DNA of 64,000 bases from Syntrophaceae bacterium UBA6252 (lineage in GTDB: Bacteria > Desulfobacterota > Syntrophia > Syntrophales > UBA6807), in contig DJVQ01000045.1 of NCBI GenBank assembly GCA_002441265.1, positions 57,575 to 121,574 of the forward strand, read 5' to 3'. Each line of letters begins with the position of its first letter. The stretch's first letter is position 1. Made by a program: the position numbers and the translations under genes. Shown here piece by piece: positions 7,094 through 34,899 of the stretch. The notes under the pieces are model-generated. The model worked only from the letters and a program-made list of their open reading frames with translations, searched no databases and was not told the DNA's origin.

Positions 7094-7114
7094 CGATCCG
7101 GGTTGCGCGACACG

Positions 7115-11962: not shown

Positions 11963-12055
11963 TGACGGCTTCGAAAGGCGCACGAAACGTGACGCTTGGG
12001 TCCGGAACGGCGGTCCAGCCTTCCGGGATTTTTCCCTTTGCCTCCCGAAAAAGCG
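11963..12055 (+). repeat. Degenerate copy of dispersed intergenic repeat (TGACGGCTT...TTTTTCCC...CGAAAA)
   Basis: Starts TGACGGCTTCGAAAGG and ends TTTTTCCCTTTGCCTCCCGAAAAAGCG, matching the termini of the copies at 40975 and 56598. Confidence 0.4.
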
Positions 12056-12235
12056 TCGTTCGGATTGCCCGCCGGCTCATCAGCGTTGGTCATATATGAC
12101 CCGCAGCGTTCCATCGTAGCCAGAAATGCCGGTCTTAAAGGAGGCCGGCACCCCCCCGGAGCCGCCGAAACGCCGGATCGCAGGATGCATCTGACAAACG
12201 ATTGGCCTGGCATGATCGTTGCTTCATATGAGGTC

Positions 12236-13732: not shown

Positions 13733-13868
13733 TATCGCAATTTGACTTCTGGACTATAAAAAAGGAAAGGAGGGGGGTGCGGAAAGAAAGGATACAGCGG
13801 AATTCTCTGAGAGGTTTTGAATTTAGGGAAATATGTCAGGAAAACACTAAGAATTGGAGGAGAAAGAC

Positions 13869-14984
13869 ATGAAGAAAAGAATGGTATTCACGGCTCTTCT
13901 GGCGATGGTCCTCGCACTGTCCTTCGCCTGGACGGCCATGGCGGCGGATGACGCCTGCGTCGACTGCGGCAAGTGCCCTCTGCGCCAGATCGAGTGCTGT
14001 GTCAGCAGCGGCCAGGCAACGCCCTACACGAGCTATTTCGACTATGAAACGGGCTACGGCTACTGCGCCACGAGCGCCTATGACAAAGACTGCAAGGTCA
14101 TCTTCGACCTTTGTAACTGCGATTCCCCGAACACGAACTTCGTGTCCGGGAAGAAGATCGGCATCCGGATGGAAATCCTGACCTCCGGCGTTTACTGGAG
14201 CGATGTGTATCCCTCCATGATGGCCTACACGTCAGCCGCGCTTGCCTGCGCCGGCACGTCGACGACCTACAGCTATACGTGGACCGACATCGATTACTAT
14301 GACAAGGCCGGCAGCCCGACCTCGCCGGTTTCGATCAGCAACACCTCCTGCGAAGTTCCCTGCGACGCGATGGCAGTTGAACTCCAGAGCGCCAACGAAA
14401 CGGGATACGAGATTCCCGCCGAAATGGTCACCAATCAGGTGAAGTACTGGTGGATCGATGTTCCCCCGATGTTCCTCAATGATTCGGAAATCGAGGGCCG
14501 GGAAGGCGAAACCGTTACGATCGAAGTGTGCCTCCAGGGCGCCAGCGGCGGGATCTGCCGTGAGTGCAACGACATCTGCTGCTGCACCATCGACGTCGGC
14601 ACGCTGTGCTGCGAGTCTGGCGACCAGACCTGCATCTACTTCCCCTATGTCGTGACCGGAATCCAGCCCTGGTGGACTGGTGTTGCGATCGCGAACTACG
14701 GCGGAACCTCTTCGCTCGACCTGACGCTGACCCTGACCGACGCCACGGGCGCGAAGTTCACCTGGGTGAAGACCGGTCACACGGCGGCAATGTGGACCTT
14801 CATCCTCGACTCCGTCCTGGCCAACTTCAGTGGCACGCCGGCAGCCGGTGCGGCAATGCTGAAGGTTGAATCTGATCAGGGCTGGATCGACGGCTACAGC
14901 TTCCTCACCGACGGCACCTTCGGTGGTAGCACGCTGGCGAGAGGCTGCTGCACGATCTGCTTCGACTACAGCAAGCTTGACTAA
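13869..14984 (+). CDS. Cys-rich secreted protein, candidate major surface-layer protein
   Basis: GGAGGAG RBS, ATG 13869, Sec-pathway signal peptide MKKRMVFTALLAMVLALSFAWTAMA. 24 Cys counted; acidic and Thr/Ser-rich; C-terminal IYFPYVVTGIQPWWTGVAIAN domain; own promoter and terminator. Confidence 0.7.
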   Translation: MKKRMVFTALLAMVLALSFAWTAMAADDACVDCGKCPLRQIECCVSSGQATPYTSYFDYETGYGYCATSAYDKDCKVIFDLCNCDSPNTNFVSGKKIGIRMEILTSGVYWSDVYPSMMAYTSAALACAGTSTTYSYTWTDIDYYDKAGSPTSPVSISNTSCEVPCDAMAVELQSANETGYEIPAEMVTNQVKYWWIDVPPMFLNDSEIEGREGETVTIEVCLQGASGGICRECNDICCCTIDVGTLCCESGDQTCIYFPYVVTGIQPWWTGVAIANYGGTSSLDLTLTLTDATGAKFTWVKTGHTAAMWTFILDSVLANFSGTPAAGAAMLKVESDQGWIDGYSFLTDGTFGGSTLARGCCTICFDYSKLD

Positions 14985-15027
14985 TTACTGACCGCAACGA
15001 CACAAGCAAAGGTCAGTGAATGAATGG

Positions 15028-15067
15028 GAATGGGCAGGGTCTTCGAAAGGCCCTGCCCATTCTGTTT
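15028..15067 (+). terminator. Intrinsic terminator-like hairpin after the Cys-rich gene
   Basis: GAATGGGCAGGG-TCTTCGAAAGG-CCCTGCCCATTC followed by TGTTT. Confidence 0.7.
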
Positions 15068-15120
15068 CGGGCAGGCAAACGGAAGAAAAGGGGACAAAGA
15101 GCCCCGGCGGGGAATGGCCG

Positions 15121-15810
15121 ATGACCAGAACAGCGACCGCATTCTTCGGGGGAATCCTGATCGTTTTGATCGCGGCCTTTGCGGCATGGGGCGCGGAGGA
15201 AGGGACCGGCCCGTTCATGCCGTCATGGGAACCCGGGCAGACGTGGACGCTGCGGCTTGAAGCCGCGAAGTGGGAAAGCGGACAGGAAAACGGGAACGGC
15301 ACCGGAGCCATCCTCCTGCGGTACCGGGTCCGGGGAATGGAGGAAGCGGGAGGGGAGACCTGCTGGGCCGTGGAAGTTTCCGGGGAAGGGGCAGGCCTGT
15401 CTCTCGAGGCGACCCTTTTTTACCGGGCAGCGGATTTCTCCCTTTCCATCGCGGAAGTGACCCGAACCCGGATGGGGGAGACCGGCAGGGAGACATGGAC
15501 ATTTCCCAGGGAGGCGCCGGCGGTTGCGAAATTCGCGGACATTCCGCTGGAAACCCCCGTGTTTCCCCTCACGGCCCCGTCGAGAAAAACCTTCGAAATG
15601 GAAAGGCGGATCGGGAACGACCTTGCCTTTCGGGAGAAAGTGGTTCAGTCCGTGGATGCCGCCCCGGGGAACGGCCGGGCACCGTCCTATGAAGTGATCT
15701 GCAAGAACAAGGACGGGATCGTGCTGTTCGCCCAGCGCTGGGAAAAGGGCAAGCCCTGGGCCGTCGAGGGACATTCGGGGGACCGGAAATACAGGATGGA
15801 GGAGCCATGA
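15121..15810 (+). CDS. Secreted hypothetical protein (beta-rich)
   Basis: Signal-peptide-like N-terminus MTRTATAFFGGILIVLIAAFAAWG-A from ATG 15121; ATGA overlap with the next gene. Confidence 0.7.
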   Translation: MTRTATAFFGGILIVLIAAFAAWGAEEGTGPFMPSWEPGQTWTLRLEAAKWESGQENGNGTGAILLRYRVRGMEEAGGETCWAVEVSGEGAGLSLEATLFYRAADFSLSIAEVTRTRMGETGRETWTFPREAPAVAKFADIPLETPVFPLTAPSRKTFEMERRIGNDLAFREKVVQSVDAAPGNGRAPSYEVICKNKDGIVLFAQRWEKGKPWAVEGHSGDRKYRMEEP

Positions 15811-18230
15811 AAAGAGCGGGGGCGGTTTTTTTCCTGATTTCGTTTTTCCTCATCTTGAACGTCGGGGCGGGACAAGCGGACGCGCTGACCTATCAGGCGG
15901 ACAAACTTCCCTGGTCGGGGTGGTGGTGGCCCTTCGCACAGGGGGGGCTCGTTACGGGAACGGGTTACAACGGCCACCCGGCACCCCTGGAGAAGTACGA
16001 TCTCGTGACGTCCGGCGTGGCCAAGGGCCCGGCGACCCAGTACGGGCTTTCAGCTTATTACAACGCACTGGCCAAATCCTGGGAAGGGATGTGCTTCTGC
16101 TGGGCGGCGGCGGCCATGCTGGAGGAGGAGCCGGTTCACCGCGGGATTTACGGCGGCCTTCTCTTCGATGTGGGAGACAAGAAAGGCATCCTCACGGCGG
16201 TGTACGACGGCACCCTGTACAACTTCTACCCCATCGACGGTCCCGAGGATTTCCAGGAAATCCTGGAAACGTTCATCGGCAACCGGCGGTCCATGATCAT
16301 GATGGATCTCGGCACGGACGGGGAAATCTGGAACTATCCCGTGTACAAGTACGACATCGATTACACGGAGGATGGGAACACCAGGCATTACACGGTGACC
16401 ATCTATTTCGCCAGCGACACGGTGTCCCCCGACTATGTGGGATTGAGGGAAAGCATACGGACGTATCACTACTATTATGAACTTGACGGGACAGTCATCA
16501 CCGGAAGCGGCTGGGAGTCGGGAAGCGAATCGGAGCATCCGGTGAGCGCCGCCGACCCGTACGGCACCGCCTGCACCGATCCCGGACTGGATTACAGCCA
16601 TGCACGGGAAATCGTCTACACCGACGACGATCCTTACGAACCGAACGACGACTTTGACGCCGCCGCTTCCGTCACCAGCGGGGGGTACCTTCTCATCGCC
16701 GCGAACAACGACTACTTCCAGGTGGATCTCCGGACCGGCGACCGGCTCAGGATCCGGGTGGACATGGAGTCGCCCGGTGACGTGACGGTGAACGTCTACG
16801 ATCCCGCGCGGGCCAAGATCGGCATTGTCTGTGACGGATGTACGACCACAGCGGAGGCCCTCATGGCCGGAGCGTACGTGATCGAGGTCATCCCCGCCGA
16901 TCCTTCCGCGGAACCGGCCTATGAACTCTACCTGGAGCAGGCGCTTTCCTTCCGGGGCGTGTTCCCCAACGATCCTTCGGGCATCTGGGCCGGCGGTGTC
17001 ACGCTGACCGGCGACGGGGAGGCCCTGGGAAGGGTGATCCTCTGCCAGACCGACGAAGAAGGGAACCCCGAGCGAAGCTACAGCACCGAGGTGGAAGGAA
17101 GCTGCCTGGAGGGCCTTCTGGAGGCCTTCGGCCTTACCCCTTCCCTCGGAGGCTATATCCGCGTCGATTCGGACCGTCCCCTGGCGGGCATGTACACGAC
17201 GACGGACGGAAGCGACCTGCTCATGGGCTGCAATCTCGTCCCCCTCTCCCGGGCGTATCGGGAGATCGTCTTTCCGCACATCGCCTCCGTCTCCGGGTGG
17301 AACACCTATTTCGGATTCATGAACATGGGGGATTCCTCGGAGGAACTCGATCTCGTGGTGTACGACTCCTCCGGAGGCACCGTCACGAGCGAGCGCTGGG
17401 TGCTTGACCCGGGGGAAAAGGTGGAGGACGACCGCTTTACGGGTCTCTTTCCTTCCCGGGGTGCGTCCGTGTCGATTTCGACGCGGAGCGGGAATGACAC
17501 CCTTGTCGGGTACCTGGTCTACCAGCCCCCGCTTGCGACGTCGAAAGCGAGGGCCCTTCTTGCCGTGGAAGGCCCGCCGGCGTCGGAACTGCACCTCCCA
17601 CACGTGGCCGCAACGGGAGCGTGGTGGACGGGCATCTCCGTCATGAACGGGGGGACCGGTTCCGCCGATGTCGGCTTTTCCGCCTATGACAGCGAGGGGA
17701 CCCTCCTCGGTACGGTGTACCGCACCCTGGCGGCGAAGCAGACCCTCGTGTCCATGGCGGCCTACCTGTTCACGGGGGTGTTGCCGGAACGGATCGCGTC
17801 GCTGAAGATTTCAGGCGGGACGGGAGCGGAGCTCACCGGGCTCGTGGTCTACGGATCCCGGGACGGTCAGGCCCTGTCGGCCGCGCCCATGGCTTCGTCT
17901 TTCCCCGGGACCCTGTACGCCCCCTGGTGGTATGTTTCCGACACCTGGTGGGAGGGCCTCGCGGTGGTCCAGAGGGGAACGTCGCCGGTGACGGTCGTTT
18001 TCGATCTCATGGATGACACCGGAACCGTTCTCCGGCGGGTGACCAGGCTGCTGGAACCGGAGGAACGGATCATTGCCATGGCGGAAACCCTCTTCGGGAC
18101 CCCGGTGCCCGATGCCGCGAAAATCGTGCGTGTTTACGGAGGGGAAGCCCCCCTGAGCGGGATCTGCATCTTCGGAGCTTGTGACGGAAAACGTCTTTGC
18201 GGGGATCTCCTGCCCGGGATCGTCCCCTGA
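15807..18230 (+). CDS. Secreted multidomain protein: transglutaminase-elicitor-like N-domain, PPC-like domain, 3-4 repeats of a ~108-aa surface domain
   Basis: Signal peptide; PWSGWWWP, PLEKYD, WEGMCFCWAAAA, DKKGILT and IWNYPVY resemble the TGase_elicitor family; DDPYEPNDD...DYFQV resembles a pre-peptidase C-terminal domain; repeats at 17265, 17589 and 17913 (324-nt period). Confidence 0.65.
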   Translation: MKRAGAVFFLISFFLILNVGAGQADALTYQADKLPWSGWWWPFAQGGLVTGTGYNGHPAPLEKYDLVTSGVAKGPATQYGLSAYYNALAKSWEGMCFCWAAAAMLEEEPVHRGIYGGLLFDVGDKKGILTAVYDGTLYNFYPIDGPEDFQEILETFIGNRRSMIMMDLGTDGEIWNYPVYKYDIDYTEDGNTRHYTVTIYFASDTVSPDYVGLRESIRTYHYYYELDGTVITGSGWESGSESEHPVSAADPYGTACTDPGLDYSHAREIVYTDDDPYEPNDDFDAAASVTSGGYLLIAANNDYFQVDLRTGDRLRIRVDMESPGDVTVNVYDPARAKIGIVCDGCTTTAEALMAGAYVIEVIPADPSAEPAYELYLEQALSFRGVFPNDPSGIWAGGVTLTGDGEALGRVILCQTDEEGNPERSYSTEVEGSCLEGLLEAFGLTPSLGGYIRVDSDRPLAGMYTTTDGSDLLMGCNLVPLSRAYREIVFPHIASVSGWNTYFGFMNMGDSSEELDLVVYDSSGGTVTSERWVLDPGEKVEDDRFTGLFPSRGASVSISTRSGNDTLVGYLVYQPPLATSKARALLAVEGPPASELHLPHVAATGAWWTGISVMNGGTGSADVGFSAYDSEGTLLGTVYRTLAAKQTLVSMAAYLFTGVLPERIASLKISGGTGAELTGLVVYGSRDGQALSAAPMASSFPGTLYAPWWYVSDTWWEGLAVVQRGTSPVTVVFDLMDDTGTVLRRVTRLLEPEERIIAMAETLFGTPVPDAAKIVRVYGGEAPLSGICIFGACDGKRLCGDLLPGIVP

Positions 18231-18331
18231 GTCGGGCGGACGTTCATAAGGAAACGACGAAGCGAAGTCGCCGGACCGCGCGCCGCCCGGGCGGGTCCGG
18301 TGGATGCAATACACTCCCTTGGAGGATGACG

Positions 18332-18769
18332 ATGAAAGTTCGATGGCTTGCAGTGTCTCTTGCGTGCCTCTTTTTCTGTTCAGCCTGTGCGCACCTCTCC
18401 CTGAAATCGCCGACGGAGGAATCCCTGAGGGAAACCGTTGACAAGGTGTGGATGTCCAAAACGCAGCGGAAATGGGGTCCCGTCTATGACCAGGCAAACG
18501 AGGAATACAAGGCCCAGGTCGAAAGAGAGGATTTCATCCGGAGGGCCAATCTGAACGTGGTTTCCTATTCCATCCGGGAAATCCGGATGACCGGACCCGG
18601 CAAGGCCGCCGTGACGCTGGATTTCTCCGTGAACTTCACGGGGACGAGTTTTTCGGGAACGACCGAGGAAGAGTGGCTCTGGGAAAAGGGGGAGTGGCGG
18701 GTGAACATGATGCCCCAGTTGAACACCCCCTTCGGTTCCCTCGCGAAGCCGCCGGCGCCGAAGAAATGA
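18332..18769 (+). CDS. Lipoprotein, NTF2-like fold possible
   Basis: GGAGG RBS at 18321; MKVRWLAVSLACLFFCSA-C lipobox-like signal; C-terminal EEWLWEKGEWRV. Confidence 0.65.
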   Translation: MKVRWLAVSLACLFFCSACAHLSLKSPTEESLRETVDKVWMSKTQRKWGPVYDQANEEYKAQVEREDFIRRANLNVVSYSIREIRMTGPGKAAVTLDFSVNFTGTSFSGTTEEEWLWEKGEWRVNMMPQLNTPFGSLAKPPAPKK

Positions 18770-19449
18770 ACGAACGGGGAACGAAGGCCCCTCTCCGGAG
18801 GGAGGCATACGACCGGAGATACGCCATGACGCTCCGGGAATGGCTCCTTCATCACCAGGAGAAGATCGTCTTCACGGAAGTGAAATGGATGGGGCTTCCC
18901 GCGTGGAAGAACCCGCTCGATGCCTGGATCTACCAGGAGATCGTCCATGAGGTCCGTCCGGAGGTGATCGTCGAAATCGGAAGCCGGTACGGCGGGAGCA
19001 CGAGGTTCTTCGCCGATCTCCTGGACATCCTGGGAAGGGGGATCGTCGTTTCCATCGATATCGACAGGTCCCTCTACCAGTGCCGCCATGAGCGGGTCGT
19101 CGAGCTTACCGGAGGAAGTTCGGAACCGGCCGTCCTCGACGAGGTGCGGTCCCTGTGCCGCGGGAAGACGGTCCTCGTCATCCAGGACGGGGACCACCGG
19201 AAGGAGCAGGTCCTCCGGGATCTCGTGAATTACGCGCCCCTCGTAACGCCGGGAAGCTATTTCATCGTGGAGGACGGGATCGTCGATCTGTTTCATCACG
19301 GGGACGGCCTCGGATTCGAGGAGGAGGGCCCGCTGGCCGCCACGGAGGAGTTTCTTGCCGGAAACCCGGGATTTGCCGTCGACGAAACCCGGGAGCGGTA
19401 CCTCCTCACCTACAACCCCCGGGGATTCCTGAAAAGAATCGGGCCGTAA
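18766..19449 (+). CDS. CmcI / cephalosporin-hydroxylase family (rhamnosyl O-methyltransferase-like) protein
   Basis: WMGLPAWKNPLDAWIYQE, VEIGSRYGGS, QDGDH and GSYFIVEDG motifs; ATGA overlap with the upstream lipoprotein. Confidence 0.85.
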   Translation: MNERGTKAPLRREAYDRRYAMTLREWLLHHQEKIVFTEVKWMGLPAWKNPLDAWIYQEIVHEVRPEVIVEIGSRYGGSTRFFADLLDILGRGIVVSIDIDRSLYQCRHERVVELTGGSSEPAVLDEVRSLCRGKTVLVIQDGDHRKEQVLRDLVNYAPLVTPGSYFIVEDGIVDLFHHGDGLGFEEEGPLAATEEFLAGNPGFAVDETRERYLLTYNPRGFLKRIGP

Positions 19450-19571
19450 GACGGCGGGACAACCTGCCGTCGGGCGCACGACCCCGGGGAAGGGACGTCT
19501 CTGAGAAGGTCGTGGACGCATCCGGACGGTGAGATCCTCCGACCTGCCGGACGATCTCGAATCGAAGGGCG

Positions 19572-20438
19572 ATGGAACACGAGGAAACCATTCAGACGAT
19601 CACGCCGGCGGGGACACCGGTCGTTCCGTTCCTCAATCCGGTCCGGCTGTTCCTCCATCTCTGGGGATTCCGGGAGATCATCCGCCCCATGACCCGGCGG
19701 GAAATCGCCGGCCGCTACCGCGGCTCCTGGCTCGGCGTCGGCTGGTCCTTCCTCCAGCCCCTTCTCATGCTGTGCGTGTACACCTTCGTCTTTTCCGTCG
19801 TTTTCGAAATCCGCTGGGGCATGTCCGGCGAGGAATCCCGGTCGGCCTTCGCCATCGCCCTGTTCATGGGGCTCATCTCCTTTTCCATTTTCTCCGAGAC
19901 GGTCAACGCGGCGCCGTCGGTGATCCTTTCGAACCCGAACCTGGTGAAACGGGTCGTTTTCCCCCTGGAGGTCCTTCCCCTGGTCCGTCTTCTCGGTTCC
20001 TTCGTTCAGGCCTTTTTCAGCCTTGTCGTGCTCGTTCTCGCCATGATCGCCGTTTTCGGGACCGTCCCGTGGACCATCCTCCTTCTCCCCCTGGTGTGGC
20101 TCCCCCTGGGGCTTTTCACCCTGGGGATCGCCTATTTCCTTGCCGCCATCGGCGTCTTCATCCGGGACACGGGCGCCCTGACGTCGATCTTCACCACCAT
20201 GCTCCTGTTCCTTTCCCCCATTTTCTATCCCCTGAGAGCGGTGCCGGAACGATTTCACTTCCTCTACCGCCTCAATCCCATCGCCGTTTTCGTGGAGGAG
20301 GCCCGCAAGGTGGCCCTGTGGGGAGCTTTTCCCGACTGGGGCTGGCTTTTTGCGGCGGCCGTCTTTTCCCTGGCCGTCTTGATTTTCGGGTTCCTGTGGT
20401 TTATGAAATCGAAAAACGCCTTTGCGGACGTCCTGTAA
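19572..20438 (+). CDS. wzm: Polysaccharide ABC transporter permease Wzm
   Basis: RYRGSWLGVGWSFLQPL, NLVKRVVFP, SPIFYP, LNP and FADVL C-terminus. Confidence 0.92.
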   Translation: MEHEETIQTITPAGTPVVPFLNPVRLFLHLWGFREIIRPMTRREIAGRYRGSWLGVGWSFLQPLLMLCVYTFVFSVVFEIRWGMSGEESRSAFAIALFMGLISFSIFSETVNAAPSVILSNPNLVKRVVFPLEVLPLVRLLGSFVQAFFSLVVLVLAMIAVFGTVPWTILLLPLVWLPLGLFTLGIAYFLAAIGVFIRDTGALTSIFTTMLLFLSPIFYPLRAVPERFHFLYRLNPIAVFVEEARKVALWGAFPDWGWLFAAAVFSLAVLIFGFLWFMKSKNAFADVL

Positions 20439-20475
20439 GGTCGGGACGGAACGGCGGAGAACGAGGTTTTCATTC

Positions 20476-21777
20476 TTGAATCGCGATCCGGTCATCCTGG
20501 GAACGGGCCTGGGGAAGTGCTACCCCATCTATCAGGCGCCGGTGGACCGCCTCAAGCAGTCCTTCTGGCGGCGCAGGAAGGTCTTTTACCGGGAGTTCTG
20601 GGCCCTCCGGGACGTCTCCTTCGGGATCCGAAAAGGGGAAACGGTGGGACTCGTCGGTTCCAACGGCTCGGGAAAATCGACCCTCCTTCAGCTCATCTCC
20701 GGCGTCCTGCGGCCGACCGAGGGAAATCTTCGGATCCGGGGGCGGGTCTCGGCGCTCCTCGAACTCGGGGCGGGCTTCAACCCGGACTGCACGGGCCGGG
20801 AGAACGTCTTCATGAACGGCGCCATCATGGGCATCCCGCAGCAGGAAATCGAAAAACGCTACGACGATATCCTCCGGTTCGCCGACATCGGGCCCTTCAT
20901 CGATCAGCCCGTGAAAACCTATTCGAGCGGGATGTACGTCCGTCTCGCCTTTGCCGTGGCGGTTCACGTGTCGCCGGACATTCTCCTCGTGGATGAAGCC
21001 CTTGCCGTGGGGGACCTCCGGTTCCAGCAGAAATGTATCGCCCGGATCCGGGAGTTCTGCGAGAAGGGGACCGTCCTTTTCGTCTCCCACGACCCCTCCG
21101 TGGTCCGGGAACTGTGCAGCCGCGTCATCTGGCTGGAAGGCGGGAGAATCCGCGGCGACGGCCCGCCCCGGGAGGTGGTGGACCGTTACCTCGCCTATAT
21201 GTACGAGGGGGAAAAGGAACCGGCGGGTGCGCGGCCGCAGGACGCGGCGGGCCCGGGGGAGGAAGGTCCGGAAGACCTTCTCCGGGGCTTCCTCCCCGTC
21301 GACAGCGCCTGCCAACAGTTCGGCGACCGGCGGGCGGTCATCGAGGCCATCCGGGTCCGGTCGCGGAACGGAACCGCCGGGGTCGTCTATTCCGGGGACC
21401 CCTGCGAGATCAGCCTCTATTTCCGGGCCCTCGAAAACGTGGACCGCCCCGTGGCGGGATTCGTCGTCCGGGACCGTCTCGGCCGGGAACTCCTGGCGGA
21501 CAACACGGCGCTGCTGAAAAAGGATCTTCCCCCCCTGTCCAAAGGGGGCGGGTATATCCTCACCTTTCATCTCGACTCCTGGCCCAATCTCCGGGAGGAG
21601 GAATATTCCCTCACCGCCGCCGTGGCGGACGGGAGCCTCACGGACCACGTCCAGTGCCACTACGTCCACGACGCCCTGGTGATCCGGAGCGTTCCCGTGC
21701 GGATGCCCGGGGCCATCCTTTCGGTGACGAAAACGGAAATTTCCCTGGGGAAAGTGGAGGGCGGCCATGCATCGTAG
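20476..21777 (+). CDS. wzt: Polysaccharide ABC transporter ATPase Wzt with C-terminal carbohydrate-binding domain
   Basis: Walker A GSNGSGKST, YSSGMYVRLAF, DEALAVGD and an extended Wzt_C domain; probable TTG start at 20476 after GAGG. Confidence 0.9.
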   Translation: MNRDPVILGTGLGKCYPIYQAPVDRLKQSFWRRRKVFYREFWALRDVSFGIRKGETVGLVGSNGSGKSTLLQLISGVLRPTEGNLRIRGRVSALLELGAGFNPDCTGRENVFMNGAIMGIPQQEIEKRYDDILRFADIGPFIDQPVKTYSSGMYVRLAFAVAVHVSPDILLVDEALAVGDLRFQQKCIARIREFCEKGTVLFVSHDPSVVRELCSRVIWLEGGRIRGDGPPREVVDRYLAYMYEGEKEPAGARPQDAAGPGEEGPEDLLRGFLPVDSACQQFGDRRAVIEAIRVRSRNGTAGVVYSGDPCEISLYFRALENVDRPVAGFVVRDRLGRELLADNTALLKKDLPPLSKGGGYILTFHLDSWPNLREEEYSLTAAVADGSLTDHVQCHYVHDALVIRSVPVRMPGAILSVTKTEISLGKVEGGHAS

Positions 21778-26047: not shown

Positions 26048-27414
26048 GGATCGCCTACACCACCCACCAGTTCTTCCCCGAGTACGGCGCGGGGACGGAG
26101 GTGCTCACCCTGCGCACGGCGCGGGAAATGCGCGCCCGGGGGCATGAGGCCGTCGTGTTCACCGGGTATCCCGTGAAGGGACAGTTCTCCCGGGAAAACG
26201 CCGAGGACGCTTACGAGTATGGCGGACTTCCCGTCTTCCGGTTCCGCCATTCCAACACCTGGTCCCTCCTCCCGAAAAACCCCATGGAGGCCGAGTATGA
26301 AAACCTCTTCTTCGCCGGCCTCTTCCGGAGGGAACTCCGGCGATTCCGGCCTGACGTCGTTCATTTCTATCATCTCCAGCGGGTCTCCGCCTCCGCCGTC
26401 GCCGTCTGTCTCGAACTGGGAATCCCCATGGTGTACACGGTCACCGATTTCTGGCCCCTGTGCCCGACGAACCAGCTGCTTCTTCCCGACCTTTCCCTGT
26501 GCGAAGGGCCCGACGGGGACGGGGCGAACTGCATCGCCCACCTGGCGGGGATTCACGGGGGCGCCGCCGGAAGGTTTTTCCGGGCCCTTCCGCCAAGGGT
26601 GCTGGGAAGGCTTGCCCGGATCTCCGGGATGGTCCCCTGGCCCGAACGGAGCATCCCCGCCATGGCGAAGGCGCTTGCGGCGAGGCCGGGCATCCTCCGG
26701 GAACGGATGAACCGCATCGACGCGATCCTCGTCGCCACGGGCTTCATGGGGGAGACCCTGGCCCGTTTCGGGGTGGAGCGGGAGCGGATCCGCCGGGTTC
26801 CCTTCGGGATCCCCGGCGGCGACGGAACATCCCCCCGGGCGGCGGATCGAGGGGGGAGGGAAACGTTCCGTGCCGGGTTCATCGGAACCCTTTACGAGCA
26901 CAAGGGCGCCCACGTTGTGCTCGAGGCGCTGCGCAGGCTTCCGGCGGATCTTCCCGTCGAGGTTCTCCTTTACGGCGATGCCGGATGGTTCCCCTCCTAC
27001 GGGGAACGTCTCCGGTGCCTCGCCGGGGGAGACGGGCGGGTCCGGTTCTGCGGCACCTTTCCAGGAGAGAGAACGGGGGAAGTTCTGGGCGGCATGGACG
27101 TTCTCGTCGTCCCGTCCCTGTGGCACGAGAATTCCCCTCTTGTGATTCTCGAGGCGCAACGGGCGGGGGTTCCCGTCATCGCCTCCCGGGTCGGCGGGAC
27201 GAGCGAGCTCATCAGGGAAGGCGAAAACGGGTTCCTCTTCGAGCGGGGGGACGACGGCGAACTGGCCCGGATCCTGGAACGGCTGTGCCGGGACGGGGAT
27301 CTCGTCGGAAGGCTTTCCCGGAACGCCCCCGCGCCGAGAACGATGGAATCCTATGCCGGCGAGATCGAGGGGGTCTACCGCGCCCTGGCGACCGGGGATT
27401 CGGTGCACCGGTAA
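26044..27414 (+). CDS. GT4 family glycosyltransferase (paralogue of upstream gene)
   Basis: ATG 26044 overlaps the upstream stop; HQFFPEYGAGTE, HKGAHV and PSLWHENSPLVILEA motifs. Confidence 0.88.
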   Translation: MRIAYTTHQFFPEYGAGTEVLTLRTAREMRARGHEAVVFTGYPVKGQFSRENAEDAYEYGGLPVFRFRHSNTWSLLPKNPMEAEYENLFFAGLFRRELRRFRPDVVHFYHLQRVSASAVAVCLELGIPMVYTVTDFWPLCPTNQLLLPDLSLCEGPDGDGANCIAHLAGIHGGAAGRFFRALPPRVLGRLARISGMVPWPERSIPAMAKALAARPGILRERMNRIDAILVATGFMGETLARFGVERERIRRVPFGIPGGDGTSPRAADRGGRETFRAGFIGTLYEHKGAHVVLEALRRLPADLPVEVLLYGDAGWFPSYGERLRCLAGGDGRVRFCGTFPGERTGEVLGGMDVLVVPSLWHENSPLVILEAQRAGVPVIASRVGGTSELIREGENGFLFERGDDGELARILERLCRDGDLVGRLSRNAPAPRTMESYAGEIEGVYRALATGDSVHR

Positions 27415-27416
27415 AT

Positions 27417-27473
27417 GTAGTCCGGGGCTTCAGCCCCGGCGGCGGAAACGCCGGCCCTGAAGGGCCGGACGAC
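27417..27473. repeat. Inverted pair of GTAG-type REP palindromes (REPIN-like)
   Basis: GTAGTCCGGGGCTTCAGCCCCGG, short spacer, then CCGGCCCTGAAGGGCCGGACGAC, whose reverse complement is GTCGTCCGGCCCTTCAGGGCCGG. Confidence 0.65.
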
Positions 27474-27493
27474 GGATTCGGAGAGAGGAGCCA

Positions 27494-28423
27494 ATGAACT
27501 GTCTTGTCCTGGGCGGAGCGGGATTCATCGGGTCTCACCTGGTGGACGCCCTTGCCGGAAGGGGCCACCGGGTCCGGGTTTTCGACCTTCCCAACATCAG
27601 CGCGGAGAACCTGCACCGTTCCCTTCCCTCCATCGAGGTCCTGGGGGGGGATTTCGAGAACCGGCGCGCCGTGGCCGAAGCCCTCGAAGGGATGGAGACG
27701 GTCGTTCATCTCGTCTCCACGACCCTCCCGGGGCCGTCGAACGAGAATCCCGGGTACGACGTGGAGACGAACGTCATCGGCTCCATCCACCTCCTGGAAG
27801 AGGCCGTTCGCCAGGGGGTCCGGAAGGTGGTCTTCGCCTCCTCCGGCGGGACGGTCTACGGGATTCCCGAGACCCTTCCCATTCCCGAATCCCACGGGAC
27901 GAACCCCATCTGCTCCTACGGGATCACCAAGCTCGCCGTCGAAAAGTACCTCACCCTGTTCCACCATCTCCACGGCCTCCGGCACACCGTCCTCCGGCTT
28001 GGAAATCCTTACGGGGAACGGCAGCGGACGAGCGGCGTCCAAGGCGCCGTGGCGGTCTTTCTCGGAAGGACGCTGCAAAACGAGGAGATCACCATCTGGG
28101 GGGACGGGACCGTGGCCCGGGATTACTTTCACGTGAGCGACCTGACCCGGGCCCTGCTCCTTGCCGTCGAGAAGGACCTCCCTTCCCCGGTCTACAATGT
28201 GGGAAGCGGCACCGCCACGTCCCTCCTCGAGATCCTGGAGACCATCGGCGCCGTGACGGGCCGGCGACCCGAGGTCCGGTTCACGCCGGCGAGAAAGCTC
28301 GACACCCCCCTCAACTGCCTGGACATCCGGAAAATCCGGACCGAGGCGGGTTGGGTCCCGACGGTGTCCCTGCGGGAGGGGATCGCCAGGACGTGGGAGT
28401 GGATGCAATCGAAAGGCCGGTGA
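27494..28423 (+). CDS. NAD-dependent epimerase/dehydratase (extended SDR)
   Basis: GGAGFIG, SSGGTVYG, YGITK and RLGNPYG motifs. Confidence 0.9.
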   Translation: MNCLVLGGAGFIGSHLVDALAGRGHRVRVFDLPNISAENLHRSLPSIEVLGGDFENRRAVAEALEGMETVVHLVSTTLPGPSNENPGYDVETNVIGSIHLLEEAVRQGVRKVVFASSGGTVYGIPETLPIPESHGTNPICSYGITKLAVEKYLTLFHHLHGLRHTVLRLGNPYGERQRTSGVQGAVAVFLGRTLQNEEITIWGDGTVARDYFHVSDLTRALLLAVEKDLPSPVYNVGSGTATSLLEILETIGAVTGRRPEVRFTPARKLDTPLNCLDIRKIRTEAGWVPTVSLREGIARTWEWMQSKGR

Positions 28424-28427
28424 CGGA

Positions 28428-30617
28428 ATGACCGCCCCGGGGCATGCGGGAACACCGGGCAGGGACAGGCTGCCTTTCGCCGTCCTTGCGGCGTTCCTCG
28501 CCCTTCTCGGGACGCTCGTGTTTCTCCGCGTCCAGGAAACCCGGCAGGAACCTTTCTTCGACGTTCTGAGCTACGCCTCGAAGGCGAAAGCCTTCTGGGA
28601 TGCCGCCGGGGAGGGGAAACCCTTCAACCCCCTCGACCTGGAACCGGCCATCCGGCCGCCGGGGACGGTCCTCGTCACGTATCCCTTCGGATTTTCCGAT
28701 GAATACCGGGGATTTTATTTCCGCACGGTTTTTCTTCCCGTGGTCCTTTTCGCCCTCGCTCTCTGGACGGCGGGGAGAAGGGCCCGGGAGCGGAAGGGGG
28801 GCGCCTGGCTCGTTCTCGTCCTCGTCGTCGCGTTTTCCTCGCTCCCCCTGTTCTATCAATTCGAACCGGCCCGGCCTTCCCCTGTCTATCCCTGGCCGAC
28901 CTGCTGGGGGCTTGTGGACACCGCGCTCGGGGCCGTCGCCGCCCTCGCGGCGGCCCTCGTCGCCCGGGGGGCCCAGGCCCGCTCCACGGCCCTGACGGCC
29001 GCCGGCATCGCTGCCGCGGCCTTCTGCCTTTTCATCAAGCCCTCGGGGATCCTCATCATGGGGGCCGTTTTCCTCGTGTGGTTCCTTTCCCTTTTCCCCT
29101 GGAGCAAACAGGGACGCGCGGACCGGTATGTCGCCGCCTGCCTCGGTGCGTTCCTTCTCGTTTACGGCGCCGCCCTGTACGCCGCCCTGCTCTCCAGGTA
29201 TCTCTCCCCGGAGACCCTGTCCCTCGGGGGAAAGGCCATGGAGGTTCTCTTGAGCGAGTGGCCCCTCGAACGGTGGGGGCCGGTCCTCCTGCGGCAGGTC
29301 CATTTCAGCGTGGGGCTCCACTGGCTCGTGTTCCTTGCAGCAATCGCCGTCCTGGCCGGCGTTTCACGGCGGAGCCGGGAGACGGAACGGGAAGGGGAAT
29401 CCCCGTCCCGCTCCTGGATTCCGGCGACCCTTGCGGTGCTCGGGATCGGACTGTGGTTCTGGCTCGTTGCCACGGGGAAATCCCAGGTACGGTATTTCTA
29501 CCCTTTTCTTCTCATGGCCGTCGTCCTCGTCTTCCCCCCGCTCATCGAGGTCCTGGAACGGACGGGGAATTCCCTGAAAAAGGTCCTTGCGGGCCTCGCC
29601 CTTCTTCCTCCCCTTTTGCTTATCGTTCTCCTCCTTCCCGGGAAACCCTTCCCGTGCGCCGGTCCCTTCCTCGGGGTGCACGTCGATTCCGGGGGGCTTG
29701 CCGACGTGGCCAGGCAGGCGGGAGCCCTGGTCGAGGAGGCGAGAAAAAGGGAAAGGAACCTCCTCGTGTACCTTCCTTCGGAGGACCACGGCAATGCCGT
29801 GTTCGCAGGGGTGGGTGGTTACAGGCGCCTGATCGACCCGGGAAAGCCCTCTTTCTTTTCCAGGACCGCCATCCGGTGGGACCGCCCGCCCGTCATCGTC
29901 CTTGCGGAGATGGCGTCGGCCGATTTCATCCTTTTCGAACCGGTGTCCCCTCCCGCCGAGGCGGCAAGGGTGCTCCAAGCGGCCTTCGCCCCCGATTTCC
30001 CCTCGGAAAAGCGCCTCGTCCGGTCGTGGCTCACCGGACTCGATCCCTCTTCGTCGGGAGTCGCGGTCCGCTCGGAAACGTCTTTGCGCCTCCTGGAGAT
30101 CACCGATCGGGAGCGCTTCTCACTGGCCGTCGACGGTCTGCGGAACCGGGACGGGTGGCGGGAAATCTTCGAGGAGGCGAATCCGCGGCGCTGGCTCACC
30201 GGGGAGGGGATGGAGCGGATGCTTTCCGGCGGGGCGTCCGTCGCCGGAGGAATCCGCTTCGGGGGCAGGTTCTCCCTGGAAGGCCTTGAAATGCGGCGGG
30301 ACGAAAACGGCCTGGTCCTGGATCTTTTCTGGAAAAGCCAGGACGAGGCCAGGCTCGACGGGATTGTCTTCCTCCACATGGTGAACGCCGAAGGCGTCAT
30401 CCTGGCCCAGGGGGATTACGGCCAGGATCCCGGAAAGCGGGCCGTTCGGAAGGATGCATGCTGGCGGGACCGCGTCCGGATCCCTGAAAACGACCTGAAG
30501 GGGGCGGCGGCCCTGGCCCTGGGAATCTACAAACCGCCGGATCTTTTCCTTCTTCCCGACGGGGGAAGAACGGACTGGGGCGGCAAACGGCTTCTCGTGC
30601 CCCTGGAAAGGAAATGA
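28428..30617 (+). CDS. Polytopic membrane protein, putative GT-C glycosyltransferase/ligase with C-terminal periplasmic beta domain
   Basis: Acidic residue in the first loop (FFDVLSY), RPPG, IKPSG and QVRYFYP motifs; >10 TM segments; soluble tail FLHMVNAEG...WRDRVRIP...LGIY typical of GT-C-associated domains. Confidence 0.55.
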   Translation: MTAPGHAGTPGRDRLPFAVLAAFLALLGTLVFLRVQETRQEPFFDVLSYASKAKAFWDAAGEGKPFNPLDLEPAIRPPGTVLVTYPFGFSDEYRGFYFRTVFLPVVLFALALWTAGRRARERKGGAWLVLVLVVAFSSLPLFYQFEPARPSPVYPWPTCWGLVDTALGAVAALAAALVARGAQARSTALTAAGIAAAAFCLFIKPSGILIMGAVFLVWFLSLFPWSKQGRADRYVAACLGAFLLVYGAALYAALLSRYLSPETLSLGGKAMEVLLSEWPLERWGPVLLRQVHFSVGLHWLVFLAAIAVLAGVSRRSRETEREGESPSRSWIPATLAVLGIGLWFWLVATGKSQVRYFYPFLLMAVVLVFPPLIEVLERTGNSLKKVLAGLALLPPLLLIVLLLPGKPFPCAGPFLGVHVDSGGLADVARQAGALVEEARKRERNLLVYLPSEDHGNAVFAGVGGYRRLIDPGKPSFFSRTAIRWDRPPVIVLAEMASADFILFEPVSPPAEAARVLQAAFAPDFPSEKRLVRSWLTGLDPSSSGVAVRSETSLRLLEITDRERFSLAVDGLRNRDGWREIFEEANPRRWLTGEGMERMLSGGASVAGGIRFGGRFSLEGLEMRRDENGLVLDLFWKSQDEARLDGIVFLHMVNAEGVILAQGDYGQDPGKRAVRKDACWRDRVRIPENDLKGAAALALGIYKPPDLFLLPDGGRTDWGGKRLLVPLERK

Positions 30618-30618
30618 G

Positions 30619-31464
30619 ATGGGTTCGGAGCCATTGAGCGGGAGGGAAAAAGCGGGGGCGGCGGTTCCGCCCGGCGACGGCGGCCGCGTGCGCCGCGAGA
30701 TCGCCCACGGCCGGTACCTTTCCGCCCGAGGGCCGGAGAACGTCTGGAACTGGGGAAGCCCGGCGGGAAGGCTCCGGTGGCGGAGAAGGGAAGCCCTGCT
30801 GACGGCAGGGATCCGCCCGGAGGCGGAGGTCCTGGAGATCGGCTGCGGAACGGGATCCCTGGCGGCGACCCTGGCCGGTCTCGGCGCGTCCGTGACGGCC
30901 ATGGACGTGTCGGAACCGCTCCTCGCCGAAGCGGGGAAGAAAATCGGGCAAGGGAGGGCCTTTTTCCTCAGAGGGGACGCCCACGGCCTTCCCTTCCGGT
31001 CGGGATCCTTTCACCGGGTTCTCGGGAGTTCCATCCTCCACCACCTGGATCTCGACAGGGCGCTGCCGGAAATCCTCCGGGTCCTGAAGCCGGGAGGCCG
31101 CATCGCCTTCGCCGAGCCGAACCTGGTGAACCCCCAGGTGCTGGCGATGAAAAAGCTGCCCTTTTTCGGGAGATGGATGGGGGAATCCCCCGACGAGACC
31201 GCTTTCATCCGGTGGAAACTGGGCCGTCTCCTCCGTTCCAGGGGCTTTTCCAGGGTCCGGATCGTCCCCTTCGACTTCCTTCACCCCCTGCTGCCCGCCG
31301 GGGTGCTTGATTTTTCGGCCGCCTTCTGTTTAATGCTGGAGAGAATCCCTCTCCTCAGGGAGGCGGCGGGGTCGCTGTTCATCTCCGCGGAAAAGGCGGG
31401 GGACGGCTCCGGGACGGAAGGAATGACGCCGGGGAGGGGCCGGACCCGCGCGCCGGGAGATTGA
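30619..31464 (+). CDS. Class I SAM-dependent methyltransferase (Methyltransf_11-like)
   Basis: LEIGCGTG, GDAHGLPF, ILHHL and RVLKPGG motifs. Confidence 0.88.
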   Translation: MGSEPLSGREKAGAAVPPGDGGRVRREIAHGRYLSARGPENVWNWGSPAGRLRWRRREALLTAGIRPEAEVLEIGCGTGSLAATLAGLGASVTAMDVSEPLLAEAGKKIGQGRAFFLRGDAHGLPFRSGSFHRVLGSSILHHLDLDRALPEILRVLKPGGRIAFAEPNLVNPQVLAMKKLPFFGRWMGESPDETAFIRWKLGRLLRSRGFSRVRIVPFDFLHPLLPAGVLDFSAAFCLMLERIPLLREAAGSLFISAEKAGDGSGTEGMTPGRGRTRAPGD

Positions 31465-31489
31465 TTTCAAGACAGGGAAGGGGCGATCG

Positions 31490-32899
31490 TTGACGAAAGA
31501 GGAACGGGTCCGTTACTTCGATTCCGTGGCGGCCGAAAGGAAGAAATGGAGACGGAAGGGGGCATTCTACCACGGGGAACTGGAAAGGTATCTCCGGCTC
31601 GTGGTTCCTCCCGGCTCGTCGGTCATCGAGATCGGCTGCGGAACGGGGGAACTCCTGAACGCCCTCCGGCCGGTAAGGGGCCTTGGAATCGACATCAGTC
31701 CCGGGATGGTCGCCGAAGCCAGGAAAAACTTTCCCCATCTCCGGTTCGAGACGGGGGACCTGGAGGATCTCCGGATCGGCGAGACATTCCAGTACGTCAT
31801 CCTGGTGGAGACCATCGGACACGTCGACGACATCCAGAGGGCCCTCCGGGAGCTGCACAAGGTCTGCGATCCCCGGACCCGGGTCATTCTCGTCTCTTAC
31901 AATTACCTCTGGGAACCGGTCCTCAAGTTCGGCGAGGCCGTCGGGCTCCGCATGAAGCAGCCGCTCCAGCACTGGCTGCCCATGACGGACATGGCCAATC
32001 TCCTGTTCCTGGCGGATTTCGAGGTGGTCCGGCGGGAAAGCAAGATCCTCGCACCGGTCCGGGTGCCCTGCGTTTCCGCCTTCGCGAACCGCGTCCTGGC
32101 CAACCTCCCCCTCATCAGCCGCCTGTGCCTGAACGGAATCCTCATCGCCCGCCCCATGACCCCGAGGAAGGACCCCGGGCGGATCTCCACGTCCGTCATC
32201 GTGCCCTGCCGGAACGAAAAGGGGAACATTGCGCCGGCGGCGGCCAGGATTCCCGCCATGGGCTGCCGGACGGAAATCCTTTTCGTGGAGGGCCATTCCG
32301 GAGACGGTACCCTGGAGGAGTGCGAGCGGGTGCGGGACGCCCGCCCCGACCGGGAGATCCGCGTCTTCCGGCAGCCGGGGGAGGGAAAGGGGGACGCCGT
32401 TCGGGAGGGCTTTTCCAGGGCGACCGGTGACGTCCTCATGATCCTCGACGCCGATCTCACCGTCCCCCCGGAAGACCTCCCCAAGTTTTTCGAAGCCCTC
32501 TCGAAGGGGAAGGGGGAGTTCATCAACGGGTCCAGGCTGGTCTACCAGATGGAGGACAGGGCCATGCGTTTTCTGAACCTCCTGGGGAACAAGTTCTTCA
32601 GCATGGCCTTCGGCTACCTCCTGGAACAGCCGATCCGGGACACCCTGTGCGGGACCAAGGTGCTGTGGCGGGAGGACTATGAAAACATCGCCGCCGGAAG
32701 GTCCTACTTCGGGGAACTCGACCCCTTCGGGGATTTCGACCTCCTCTTCGGCGCCGCCCGGCTGAATCTCAAGATCGTCGAGATCCCAGTGAAATACCGG
32801 GAACGGACCTACGGGAGGACGCAGATCCAAAGATTCCGGCACGGGTGGCTTCTCCTGAAGATGACCTTCGTCGCCATGAGGAGGATCAAATTTTTGTGA
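31490..32899 (+). CDS. Bifunctional SAM-methyltransferase-like / GT2 glycosyltransferase
   Basis: N-terminal IEIGCGTG; C-terminal VIVPCRNEKGNI, ILDADLT, DTLCGTK and DPFGDFDLLFGA motifs (DPM-like GT2). Confidence 0.88.
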   Translation: MTKEERVRYFDSVAAERKKWRRKGAFYHGELERYLRLVVPPGSSVIEIGCGTGELLNALRPVRGLGIDISPGMVAEARKNFPHLRFETGDLEDLRIGETFQYVILVETIGHVDDIQRALRELHKVCDPRTRVILVSYNYLWEPVLKFGEAVGLRMKQPLQHWLPMTDMANLLFLADFEVVRRESKILAPVRVPCVSAFANRVLANLPLISRLCLNGILIARPMTPRKDPGRISTSVIVPCRNEKGNIAPAAARIPAMGCRTEILFVEGHSGDGTLEECERVRDARPDREIRVFRQPGEGKGDAVREGFSRATGDVLMILDADLTVPPEDLPKFFEALSKGKGEFINGSRLVYQMEDRAMRFLNLLGNKFFSMAFGYLLEQPIRDTLCGTKVLWREDYENIAAGRSYFGELDPFGDFDLLFGAARLNLKIVEIPVKYRERTYGRTQIQRFRHGWLLLKMTFVAMRRIKFL

Positions 32900-32926
32900 C
32901 GATTTTGACGTTCCGATTACATTTTT

Positions 32927-32955
32927 TTGACAGGAGGCCCGCAATCCGATAGGAT
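32927..32955 (+). promoter_or_regulatory. Sigma70-like promoter for the PKD-repeat (putative seleno) protein
   Basis: TTGACA (32927-32932), 17-bp spacer, TAGGAT (32950-32955), preceded by a T-rich tract. Confidence 0.7.
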
Positions 32956-32961
32956 GCCCCG

Positions 32962-33190
32962 AACCCGCCCGGGAGAAATTTTCGTTGAAAATCCCCGAAA
33001 GGCGGGCTTTTTCAACGATGGTGTCTGAAAAGCGAGACCCGCAAAGGGTTCTGAAGCCCAGGGGAGATCCGGAAACCCCGGAATTGACGCCGGTCCCCGG
33101 GGAAGCGGGCCGTCACGGAGATTTCTCCGGAATGCGGTATGTTTATTGCAATAACCTCATGCAGTAAGAGAAAAATTACACTCTTTCGAG
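32962..33190 (+). other. Long, highly structured putative 5' leader
   Basis: Hairpins TCGTTGAAAA...TTTTCAACGA with an inner GAAA loop, AGACCC-GCAA-AGGGTTCT, and a nested TCCGGA...TGACG...CGTCA...TCCGGA structure. Confidence 0.4.
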
Positions 33191-33198
33191 GAGGAAAC

Positions 33199-34899
33199 AT
33201 GAAGAGGGTGGTCAAAAAGATCCCGATGTGGTCATTTATGGCCTTGGCGCTTGCCATTATCCTTACGCTGTCCATGGCAAAGCCGGCGGCCGCGGGGTGA
33301 GGCACGTGCTACTTTACGCTGGCCGTGACTGTCAGCCCGATTGCTATAGCAGGAAATGTGGAAGTTACCCCCGTAACGGAAAAACTGCAGAAGGTGACAT
33401 GCTACAATGAGGAGAGTGGCTCGGTTGAAGGCAAATGCAACTACGTTACGGAAGGGAGTATCTCCTATTATCTGACCGCCACCGCGAACGAGGGATACAC
33501 GTTCTCACGATGGGAGGGAGAAGTCTCGAGCACCAACCAGACGGTTACCATCACGCTCCCGGCAACGGCGGACTCGACGACGAAAAACTTCAAGGCGATT
33601 TTTGTGCAAAGGACCCCGACGCCCCCCACTGCGAACGCCGGGGCCGACCAGATAGTCGAATCCGGCACTCTGGTCACCCTCGACGGATCGGGATCGTCCG
33701 ACAGCGACGGGACCATCGTTTCGTACAGTTGGGAGCAGCTCTCGGGGACAGGAGTCGCCCTTTCCGACAACAACGCCCAGAAACCCACCTTCACGGCGCC
33801 CAATGTGGCGGCGGGTTCGACGGCGGCCCTGACCTTCCGTCTCCGCGTGTATGACGATGAGATGATGTCCGGAACGGACACCGTGACCATCACCGTGGGG
33901 TCGTCCAACGAGGCCCCCACTGCGAACGCCGGGGCGGACCAGTCGGTTCAGACGGGAACGACGGTCACCCTGAACGGGACCGGGTCGTCCGATCCCGAGG
34001 GAGGCGCGCTTACCTATGCCTGGACCCAGCTCTCCGGGACCGAGGTCACGTTGTCCGACCCGACTGCGTCGAGTCCCGCCTTCACCGCTCCCGATGAGGC
34101 GGGGACCCTCGTGTTCCAGCTCACTGTCACAGACAGTTACCAGGCTTCGGACACGGACACGGTCACGATCACCGTCTCGGTTCCGAGTGCATCGGCGGCG
34201 TACAGGCTCTACTACCCCCACGTGGTGAGCCAGCTTTCCGCCGGCGGCGACAAGGTCTGGGAGACGGACATCATCATCGTCTATACCGGCACGGAGGAAT
34301 CCTTCACGGGGACCCTCCTGGCCTACGACGCCTCGGGCGCGGAAGTCGGCACGGCCGTCGGGGTGACCCTGGCCCCCCTGGGAAGGATCGTCTACCCGGT
34401 GGGTGCGACCTTCGAATCGCCGGAGACGATCCGGTACATCGTTCTCGAGTCGGAACAGGACGGCGCCGTGGGCTATGAGCTGCTCGGCGTGGACGGCCTG
34501 GCCCGGACGACCTTCGAGGCGTACCAGGTTTCCGGGGATGCGGAATACCAGCCCCCCATCGCCCAGAGCCGGGCTTCGTCCGCCCTTCCCTCTTCGTCGG
34601 GCGTGTTCATGACGCTGGACCAGGCGGGCTGGACCGGCATCGTCTTCGTGAATCCCGGCGACGCCGAGGTCACGATCGAACTCAAAGCCTACAATGACGA
34701 AGGCGAGGAGATCGCGACCGATTCCTTCGACCTGGCGGCGGGAGGCTATCGCTCCGGGTTCGCTTCCGGGTTCTTCCTGGAGAAAGGGGCCCTTGAAGGC
34801 GCCACCCACATCACCTATTCGGCGGGCGGCGACGTGATCGCCGTCCAGTTTACCGGCGACTTCAGCGGCGCCATGCTGGATTCGCTTCCCGGCGCCTGA
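33199..34899 (+). CDS. Secreted PKD/K319-like repeat protein with in-frame TGA at codon 34 (putative selenocysteine, UxxC); alternatively a nonsense pseudogene
   Basis: GAGGAGG RBS then ATG 33199, in frame with ORF 33325. Reads MKRVVKKIPMWSFMALALAIILTLSMAKPAAAG-TGA-GTCYFTL...; then an InlB-B-like repeat (LTATANEGYTFSRWEG), two ANAGADQ PKD/K319-like repeats and two shared surface domains. Confidence 0.75.
33301..33350 (+). promoter_or_regulatory. Candidate bacterial SECIS hairpin
   Basis: GCTGGC(33318-23)-CGTGACT-GTCAGC(33331-36): 6-bp stem with one G-U pair; loop starts 23 nt after the TGA and has G in position 2; a possible lower GCTA/TAGC pairing. Confidence 0.55.
33623..34180 (+). repeat. 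Two intragenic PKD/K319-like domain repeats (291-nt period)
   Basis: CCCCCACTGCGAACGCCGGGGC(C/G)GACCAG occurs at ~33623 and ~33914. Confidence 0.75.

Follow-up and report, generated by a model that had tools for sequence, protein, structure and literature searches.

Genes A, B and C of a 64,000-nucleotide stretch of DNA from Syntrophaceae bacterium UBA6252 (assembly GCA_002441265.1, contig DJVQ01000045.1, positions 57,575 to 121,574 of the forward strand; we refer to the whole stretch as the window herein) encode secreted proteins that share a repeated domain, which very probably belongs to the ASRAH superfamily. We favour, with some reservation, a reading in which four copies of this repeat together make up a surface anchor, one used by both the probable coat protein encoded by gene A and many secreted accessory proteins. 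Gene C is in addition a probable selenoprotein gene. The repeat had been pointed out in an earlier description made from the letters of the window alone (the sequence-only reading), and its claims are taken up below where our results bear on them. The three genes are as follows.

13854–14984 (likely start ATG 13869), + strand: gene A, encoding a secreted protein of 371 residues, 24 of them Cys, with a beta-sandwich region at the N-terminus and a single ASRAH domain at the C-terminus
15807–18230, + strand: gene B, encoding a signal peptide, a transglutaminase-elicitor-like domain (PF16683, E 7e-16), a PPC-like domain and four ASRAH copies
33199–34899, + strand: gene C, encoding a signal peptide, an in-frame TGA, an InlB B-repeat, two PKD domains and two ASRAH copies

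Seven copies of the domain lie in the window, one in gene A, four in gene B and two in gene C.

14634–14966, + strand: domain copy A1
16956–17243, + strand: domain copy B1, divergent
17265–17579, + strand: domain copy B2
17589–17903, + strand: domain copy B3
17913–18212, + strand: domain copy B4
34207–34527, + strand: domain copy C1
34579–34881, + strand: domain copy C2

The motifs of the sequence-only reading were located in the sequence at 14634, 17265, 17589, 17913 and 34207, as were its copies near 16956 in gene B and 34627 in gene C, and the 324-nt spacing of the gene B copies at 17265, 17589 and 17913 was borne out. Pairwise identity among the seven copies is 14–30%, with A1 only 19–27% identical to the accessory copies, and for 12 of the 21 copy pairs no more than 2 of 300 shuffles matched the alignment score. 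A hidden Markov model (HMM) of the seven copies picked up six further proteins in the genome (E 1.9e-44 to 1.7e-11), which we regard as a stronger test of the repeat than the shuffle scores, and the iterated search converged on 25 copies in nine proteins plus two weak stand-alone proteins. The Gly of the AYD..G turn is invariant (25/25 copies), the first strand, h-x-h-P, keeps its Pro in 24, the Asn that ends the second strand is present in 21, and a conserved Trp opens the strand after the first. Judged by these comparisons, the repeat is real. We rejected the idea that the domain is confined to this island; the domain profile matches 17,389 clusters (50% identity) at E ≤ 0.001.

To place the domain structurally, predicted models were compared with solved structures. 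The AlphaFold model of copy B3 (predicted local distance difference test score 92.5) matched TM1070 (1NC7) with Z 12.4 and a root-mean-square deviation (rmsd) of 2.2 over 99 residues, and ASRT (2II7) with Z 9.4, the next unrelated structure scoring Z 6.4. Foldseek with the same model agreed, returning 1NC7 at a template modelling (TM) score of 0.73. The A1 part of the gene A model (residues 252–361) likewise matched 1NC7 (Z 11.5, rmsd 2.4 over 101 residues). These predicted models point strongly to membership of the ASRAH superfamily, and a new fold was rejected as an interpretation of them, the match being to the TM1070/ASRT beta-sandwich. According to the available text of PMC2739507, in which the superfamily was defined, ASRAH domains are predicted to bind surface sugars, TM1070 is a tetramer whose clefts are partly built at the dimer interface, and secreted ASRAH domains occur as dyads or tetrads. 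The window family shares with them the predicted eight-stranded sandwich, a sugar-related gene context and the secreted dyads and tetrads, two or four copies being found in 55 of 61 complete multi-copy proteins; by its position, the Asn closing the second strand would also be equivalent. It differs in being only 7–15% identical to the solved members, in lacking the SHE..C signature and amidase fusions, in not being a lipoprotein, and in that Desulfobacterota-type genomes have it as a single copy on a Cys-rich protein and attached to many cargos; single secreted copies are new for the superfamily.

The ASRT-like subfamily (PF07100) is a stand-alone cytoplasmic domain with a SHEshChhN signature. 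The carriers in the window fall outside it, as all have a signal peptide and none has that signature. DUF5719 (PF18986) is closer: 10 of the 25 copies match it at E ≤ 1 (best 1.7e-5) and two paralogues in the genome pass its gathering cut-off, but the window's own copies stay below it (best E 0.013, for C2) and the Pfam model spans only part of each copy. DUF5719 and ASRT are also the nearest named Atlas clusters. Beyond the weak DUF5719 match, Pfam and NCBIfam scans gave no family for gene A or the single copies, a PDB sequence search with the domain profile gave nothing below E 0.07, and the term DUF5719 was not found in an open-access literature search. The domain is therefore without a good Pfam model, though not new: we treat it as a new branch of a known superfamily, outside the three families described in the available text of PMC2739507 (2009). 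Thus, while the repeat and the positions in the sequence-only reading stand, its description of the domain as unnamed does not, and neither does its claim that the domain is always C-terminal. Two paralogues in the genome carry it straight after the signal peptide, and among the 61 multi-copy proteins it lies within 30 residues of the C-terminus in 47 and is followed by a tail of more than 90 residues in 14.

The copy number of the domain is strongly patterned. Exactly four stretches were found in 137 of the best 150 of the 17,389 matching clusters, a ranking by summed score that would favour arrays longer than four. In the 95 complete open reading frames (ORFs) of the fetched loci, with near-identical homologues counted separately and ORFs cut by locus ends excluded, four copies are the commonest class (39), followed by one (34), two (16), three (5) and five (1). 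The single-copy carriers are mostly Cys-rich A types or short stand-alone proteins. Among the latter are short secreted proteins with one divergent copy each (L010:5355-5915 and L011:534-1229), and similar proteins of 170–190 residues occur in several other genomes. The cargo is varied, including RCC1, LVIVD, subtilase, rhodanese and PKD domains, and RCC1 repeats, LVIVD repeats and a subtilase are represented in this genome. Among 41 relatives, many copies are present only in this genome and its congener G001, with one weak match in G039; in a phylum sample the domain is found patchily, in 30 of 401 genomes, often in many copies each. Close homologues of the domain in named relatives point to Syntrophales, and those of A to Desulfobacterales.

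What the domain may do is best indicated by a natural exchange. Two proteins of genome G430 with gene C-type cargo (signal peptide-TGA-InlB-PKD-PKD) end in a Gly-rich Cys-Phe tail rather than the domain, and three relatives whose N-terminus is the same have four copies of the domain. We take these tails to be sorting signals; the NCBIfam scan did not recognise those of G430. In our assessment, this swap of domain for tail is the best independent sign that the domain has an addressing role.

The gene neighbourhood of A provides further context.

11996–13696, + strand: gene preceding A, in synteny with it and encoding two CAP domains; homologues in G001 and two of four named loci
15016–15810, + strand: small secreted protein gene without a Pfam or NCBIfam match; homologues in G001 and three of the four named loci
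15027–15063, + strand: 17-bp hairpin after gene A (−33.8 kcal/mol for 15021–15075)
19572–21777, + strand: Wzm/Wzt-type ATP-binding cassette exporter, first in a long cluster of glycosyl- and methyltransferase genes; present close to the locus in G001 too

In G001 and all four named loci, a B homologue is found no more than 10 kb from A. The G001 order is TPR, TPR, CAP, A, small gene, B, and wzm/wzt is close by. The hairpin 3' of gene A is likely a terminator that would lower read-through into gene B, and the Wzm/Wzt cluster is a candidate source of an anchoring glycan. The transglutaminase-elicitor-like domain of B (window 15807-16600), kept beside A in all named loci, could cross-link or process a coat. 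Two large membrane-plus-TPR proteins 5' of the CAP gene (window 7103-11958) are kept in G001; they are presumably similar to protein O-glycosyltransferases, as would suit a coat that is glycosylated.

From the observed sequence family, copy-number pattern, gene order and cargo variety, together with the predicted fold, we infer the following mechanism. The working unit would be four domains: four A chains would join through their single copies at the four-fold node of a square lattice, four-copy proteins would close a pseudo-tetramer within one chain, and two-copy proteins such as the gene C product would pair up. A surface glycan, for which the adjacent Wzm/Wzt cluster may be responsible, would then be held in the tetramer clefts and give the coat and its passengers a common anchor. 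That a surface glycan is the ligand we consider an even proposition. In Gram-positive bacteria, SLH or CWB2 trimers anchor the coat and its passengers, and the proposed system would work alike in that one module, carried by the coat protein and by many accessories, binds a surface polymer; the SLH and CWB2 modules differ in their unrelated fold, three-fold arrangement and monoderm hosts. The idea that the domain is a surface-anchoring module for the major subunit and its accessories was already part of the sequence-only reading, and it is plausible and partly supported here: it fits the one versus two or four copies, the conserved A–B pair and the G430 swap, although the superfamily, with its predicted sugar binding, had already been described.

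In the version of the sequence-only reading, accessory copies would instead dock into the lattice itself, co-assembling with A copies and replacing A subunits at a node, with no glycan involved. This would be in keeping with the same predicted fold on A and its neighbours, with the conserved A–B pairing and with two-copy proteins such as C, which need partners to make four. However, the four-copy proteins that make up the commonest class could complete a tetramer alone, A1 is only 19–27% identical to the accessory copies, and in 14 of the 30 domain-positive genomes the A profile finds nothing; we consider docking unlikely. Since tetrads need no partner, a shared ligand explains the many cargos better. 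A rather less probable alternative has no coat in it: as a general sugar-binding module outside the cell, the domain would direct enzymes and adhesins to external substrates or to biofilm matrix. The sugar binding predicted in the available text of PMC2739507, the very large size of the family and the N-terminal or internal position that the domain can take would all agree with it, but it leaves unexplained why so many unrelated cargos have the same domain, why a genome tends either to carry many copies or to lack the domain altogether, and why the domain is swapped with a C-terminal tail.

We give the lowest probability to a third alternative, in which a type II secretion system would recognise the folded domain as an export signal. 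Two or four copies would be needless for such a signal, and no secretion gene was annotated beside A within the window. ORFs 5' of the A-type locus in L045 (2-1756) and L046 (3-1721) are, we presume, type II secretion secretin look-alikes, which would favour it. So would the position of slr4, a gene discussed below, which adjoins a type II secretion cluster in the portion of PMC7821379 available.

Returning to the shared surface anchor, its coat component would be the gene A protein, which is probably the main surface-layer (S-layer)-like subunit. Behind the signal peptide, its N-terminal part is variable and its C-terminal domain conserved, and its homologues have one C-terminal copy behind a variable Cys-rich N-terminus. 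RNA contig depth, which is no measure of expression, cannot rank genes and comes from runs found using this stretch, offers a hint only: in two of four runs, from two studies, contigs inside gene A reached a depth of 400–720 versus 1–27 for B, the ATP synthase genes and rplT, and long contigs show that a close relative was present in both. The fourth run covers little besides gene A. Two A-type genes lie within 9 kb of each other in L047 (1218-2636 and 9875-11281), suggesting alternative coat subunits. In G001, a TAA and what looks like a disturbed reading frame interrupt the A homologue (L038:13970-15316), reflecting either an assembly error or a broken gene.

We also asked whether the coat could be related to Slr4 (PF19526), an S-layer protein that forms a p4 lattice according to the available text of PMC7821379. 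Both are secreted beta proteins, of 370–550 residues, and the C-terminal stretch of Slr4 aligns with the domain: hhalign of the pooled domain against Slr4 was in register, motif to motif, at 16% probability versus less than 0.5% for control regions. The Slr4 model gave 24.3 bits (E 2.6e-5) for the C-terminus of one A homologue, below the 25-bit cut-off, and E 0.013 for a second, and Slr4 appears on 10–16% of the members of the three Atlas clusters nearest A (score 0.86–0.87), which is a lead only. The differences are that no A homologue exceeds the cut-off, gene A itself having no Slr4 match, and that the gene A protein is Cys-rich. One Slr4 match among 41 relatives (E 0.0175) was discounted, as 2 of 14 controls also matched. 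Two Cys-poor S-layer-like proteins were encountered, one with a single weak C-terminal domain copy (L019:244-1785, G039) and one above the Slr4 cut-off (L156:1459-2907, G157); a plasmid search with the G039 protein found nothing. The available portions of PMC10765051, PMC11410804 and PMC3658858 give no domain-level account of these S-layers. Homology of the domain or gene A to Slr4 is, on this basis, weak and inconclusive.

Several observations weigh against a coat built and anchored in this way. The A profile matches 16 of 401 genomes, all 16 among the 30 domain-positive ones, which speaks for such a coat, but the overlap is partly circular, as A contains the domain, many positives come from one family (f79), and the genomes without an A match count here as they did for docking. 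The N-terminal part of the predicted gene A model resembles pilin and adhesin sandwiches with a middling Z of 6.5, and Foldseek with the whole model gave only low-TM adhesin and pilin matches; because of this resemblance, a fibre formed by the gene A protein is possible. RNA run X6 was flat across the locus. With respect to Slr4, A-type copies alone reached a probability of 0.35% in hhalign, the Slr4 model matched none of 19 A-family members, and the domain HMM missed a protein scoring above the Slr4 cut-off. Finally, wzm/wzt is absent from view at the four named loci, which links it to the locus only in this genus.

Gene C adds a second property to the anchored proteins.

33298–33300, + strand: in-frame TGA where the mature protein begins; read as selenocysteine, it gives a U-x-x-C context; same position in seven homologous genes of three other genomes
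33318–33336, + strand: hairpin resembling a selenocysteine insertion sequence (SECIS), with a 6-bp stem and a 7-nt loop starting CG, 23 nt after the TGA

The start that the sequence-only reading had assigned, 33199, holds only on the condition that translation continues past the TGA at 33298. In total, 13 genes of two types have an in-frame TGA, and 11 of them carry the ASRAH domain. Type 1 comprises eight genes in four genomes, with a signal peptide, the TGA and an InlB B-repeat; six carry the domain. The five codons of the type 1 hairpin are identical in seven of the eight, gene C being one base off with a G-U pair kept, and the next Pro codon varies. The chance of this codon set is about 0.005 per gene from the codon use of 14 window genes, although shared ancestry inflates the agreement. 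A second repeat without a TGA uses other codons and has no hairpin. Of 401 genomes, 4 contain the type 1 pattern, with eight occurrences of which one is out of frame; a reversed control gave none. The five type 2 genes have the TGA at one position of a domain that we take to be nidogen-like, all with four ASRAH copies downstream; base changes on both sides of their hairpin preserve its pairing, and in G242 they do so although amino acids change as well. The genome encodes SelA, SelB and two tRNA-Sec, and selA was above cut-off in all five genomes tested (this genome, G001, G153, G430 and that of L045), a test that left out G242, G347 and L062. As a side observation, a single genome (G000, contigs C11 and C15) has two tRNA-Sec genes as well as two selB matches that exceed the cut-off.

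We judge it likely that the in-frame TGA encodes selenocysteine. In the bacterial SECIS model, as given in the available text of PMC13188914, a hairpin lies 16–37 nt downstream of the UGA with G in the first two loop positions; the hairpins of both types fit, and gene C has the conserved in-frame UGA as well. The alternative, that the TGAs are leaky or programmed read-through sites or pseudogene lesions, is improbable. It would account for the lack of Cys at the TGA position in the homologues seen, including the sole TGA-less nidogen-like homologue inspected, no wide search having been made, and for flanks that are mostly Gly, Ala, Ser or Thr rather than a redox motif. Of all TGA triplets in the genome, 28% also satisfy a loose hairpin rule, and a hairpin was for that reason not counted as evidence by itself. 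Neither lesions nor leakiness would readily explain TGAs at homologous positions in eight and five genes from several families, hairpins that fit the SECIS model, stem codons that stay fixed while the next codon varies, compensatory changes in one type, a TGA-less repeat without a hairpin, or selA in every genome tested. No TGA-less InlB-type homologue turned up in the sequences compared, again without a wide search. A genome-wide scan for read-through TGAs was dropped as too noisy, and MvhD and molybdopterin domain searches for a SECIS reference found no in-frame stop.

The gene C product is accordingly a likely selenoprotein, of a secreted group that appears uncatalogued. Neither type is among the 119 selenoprotein families of Table 1 in PMC13188914 (2026), which as available lists no InlB B-repeat or nidogen-like secreted family, nor in the searched passages of PMC13326102, whose BSepDB supplement, possibly incomplete, has no InlB, NIDO, PKD, S-layer, CTERM or surface entry. 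An open-access literature search for a selenoprotein with InlB, NIDO or S-layer found nothing on these proteins. They share with known bacterial selenoproteins the in-frame UGA, the downstream SECIS-like hairpin and genomes with the selenocysteine machinery, and differ in the placing of the residue, which would be the N-terminal end of the mature protein or a loop in a surface domain that does not look enzymatic. A selenylsulfide could form between the selenocysteine and Cys residues close by. As the selenocysteine would lie upstream of the anchor in some passengers, gene C included, only selenium-supplied full-length chains would be anchored, and through the TGA, selenium supply may control whether the anchored form is made.

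Elsewhere in the window, an Rfam scan of positions 12000-36000 gave no match. Related strains in three RNA runs are without about 122 bases at 56561-56684, within the ATP synthase gene region, and positions 1-1845 form a lower-GC stretch (0.53 over the first 2 kb) encoding a membrane protein without a Pfam family.

A broader proposal, which we put forward tentatively, is that several anaerobic Desulfobacterota lineages build a disulfide-rich square-lattice coat on ASRAH tetramers, a diderm counterpart of SLH and CWB2, and that the same four-fold anchor displays many passengers. These would include two undescribed secreted selenoprotein families, whose N-terminal or loop selenocysteine would react with the Cys-rich coat or with outside metals or sulfur species. 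What the analysis adds is a one-, two- and four-copy system around a probable coat protein, together with two probable new secreted selenoprotein families. Genes with in-frame TGAs are cut short by standard gene callers; if confirmed, these would add two secreted, surface-directed families to a selenoprotein catalogue of mostly redox enzymes. A large and mostly unannotated domain family of 17,389 clusters gains a predicted fold, a named ancestry and a testable job, which may link ASRT, DUF5719 and Slr4-type S-layers and offers a candidate answer to how diderm anaerobes attach their coat and surface enzymes.

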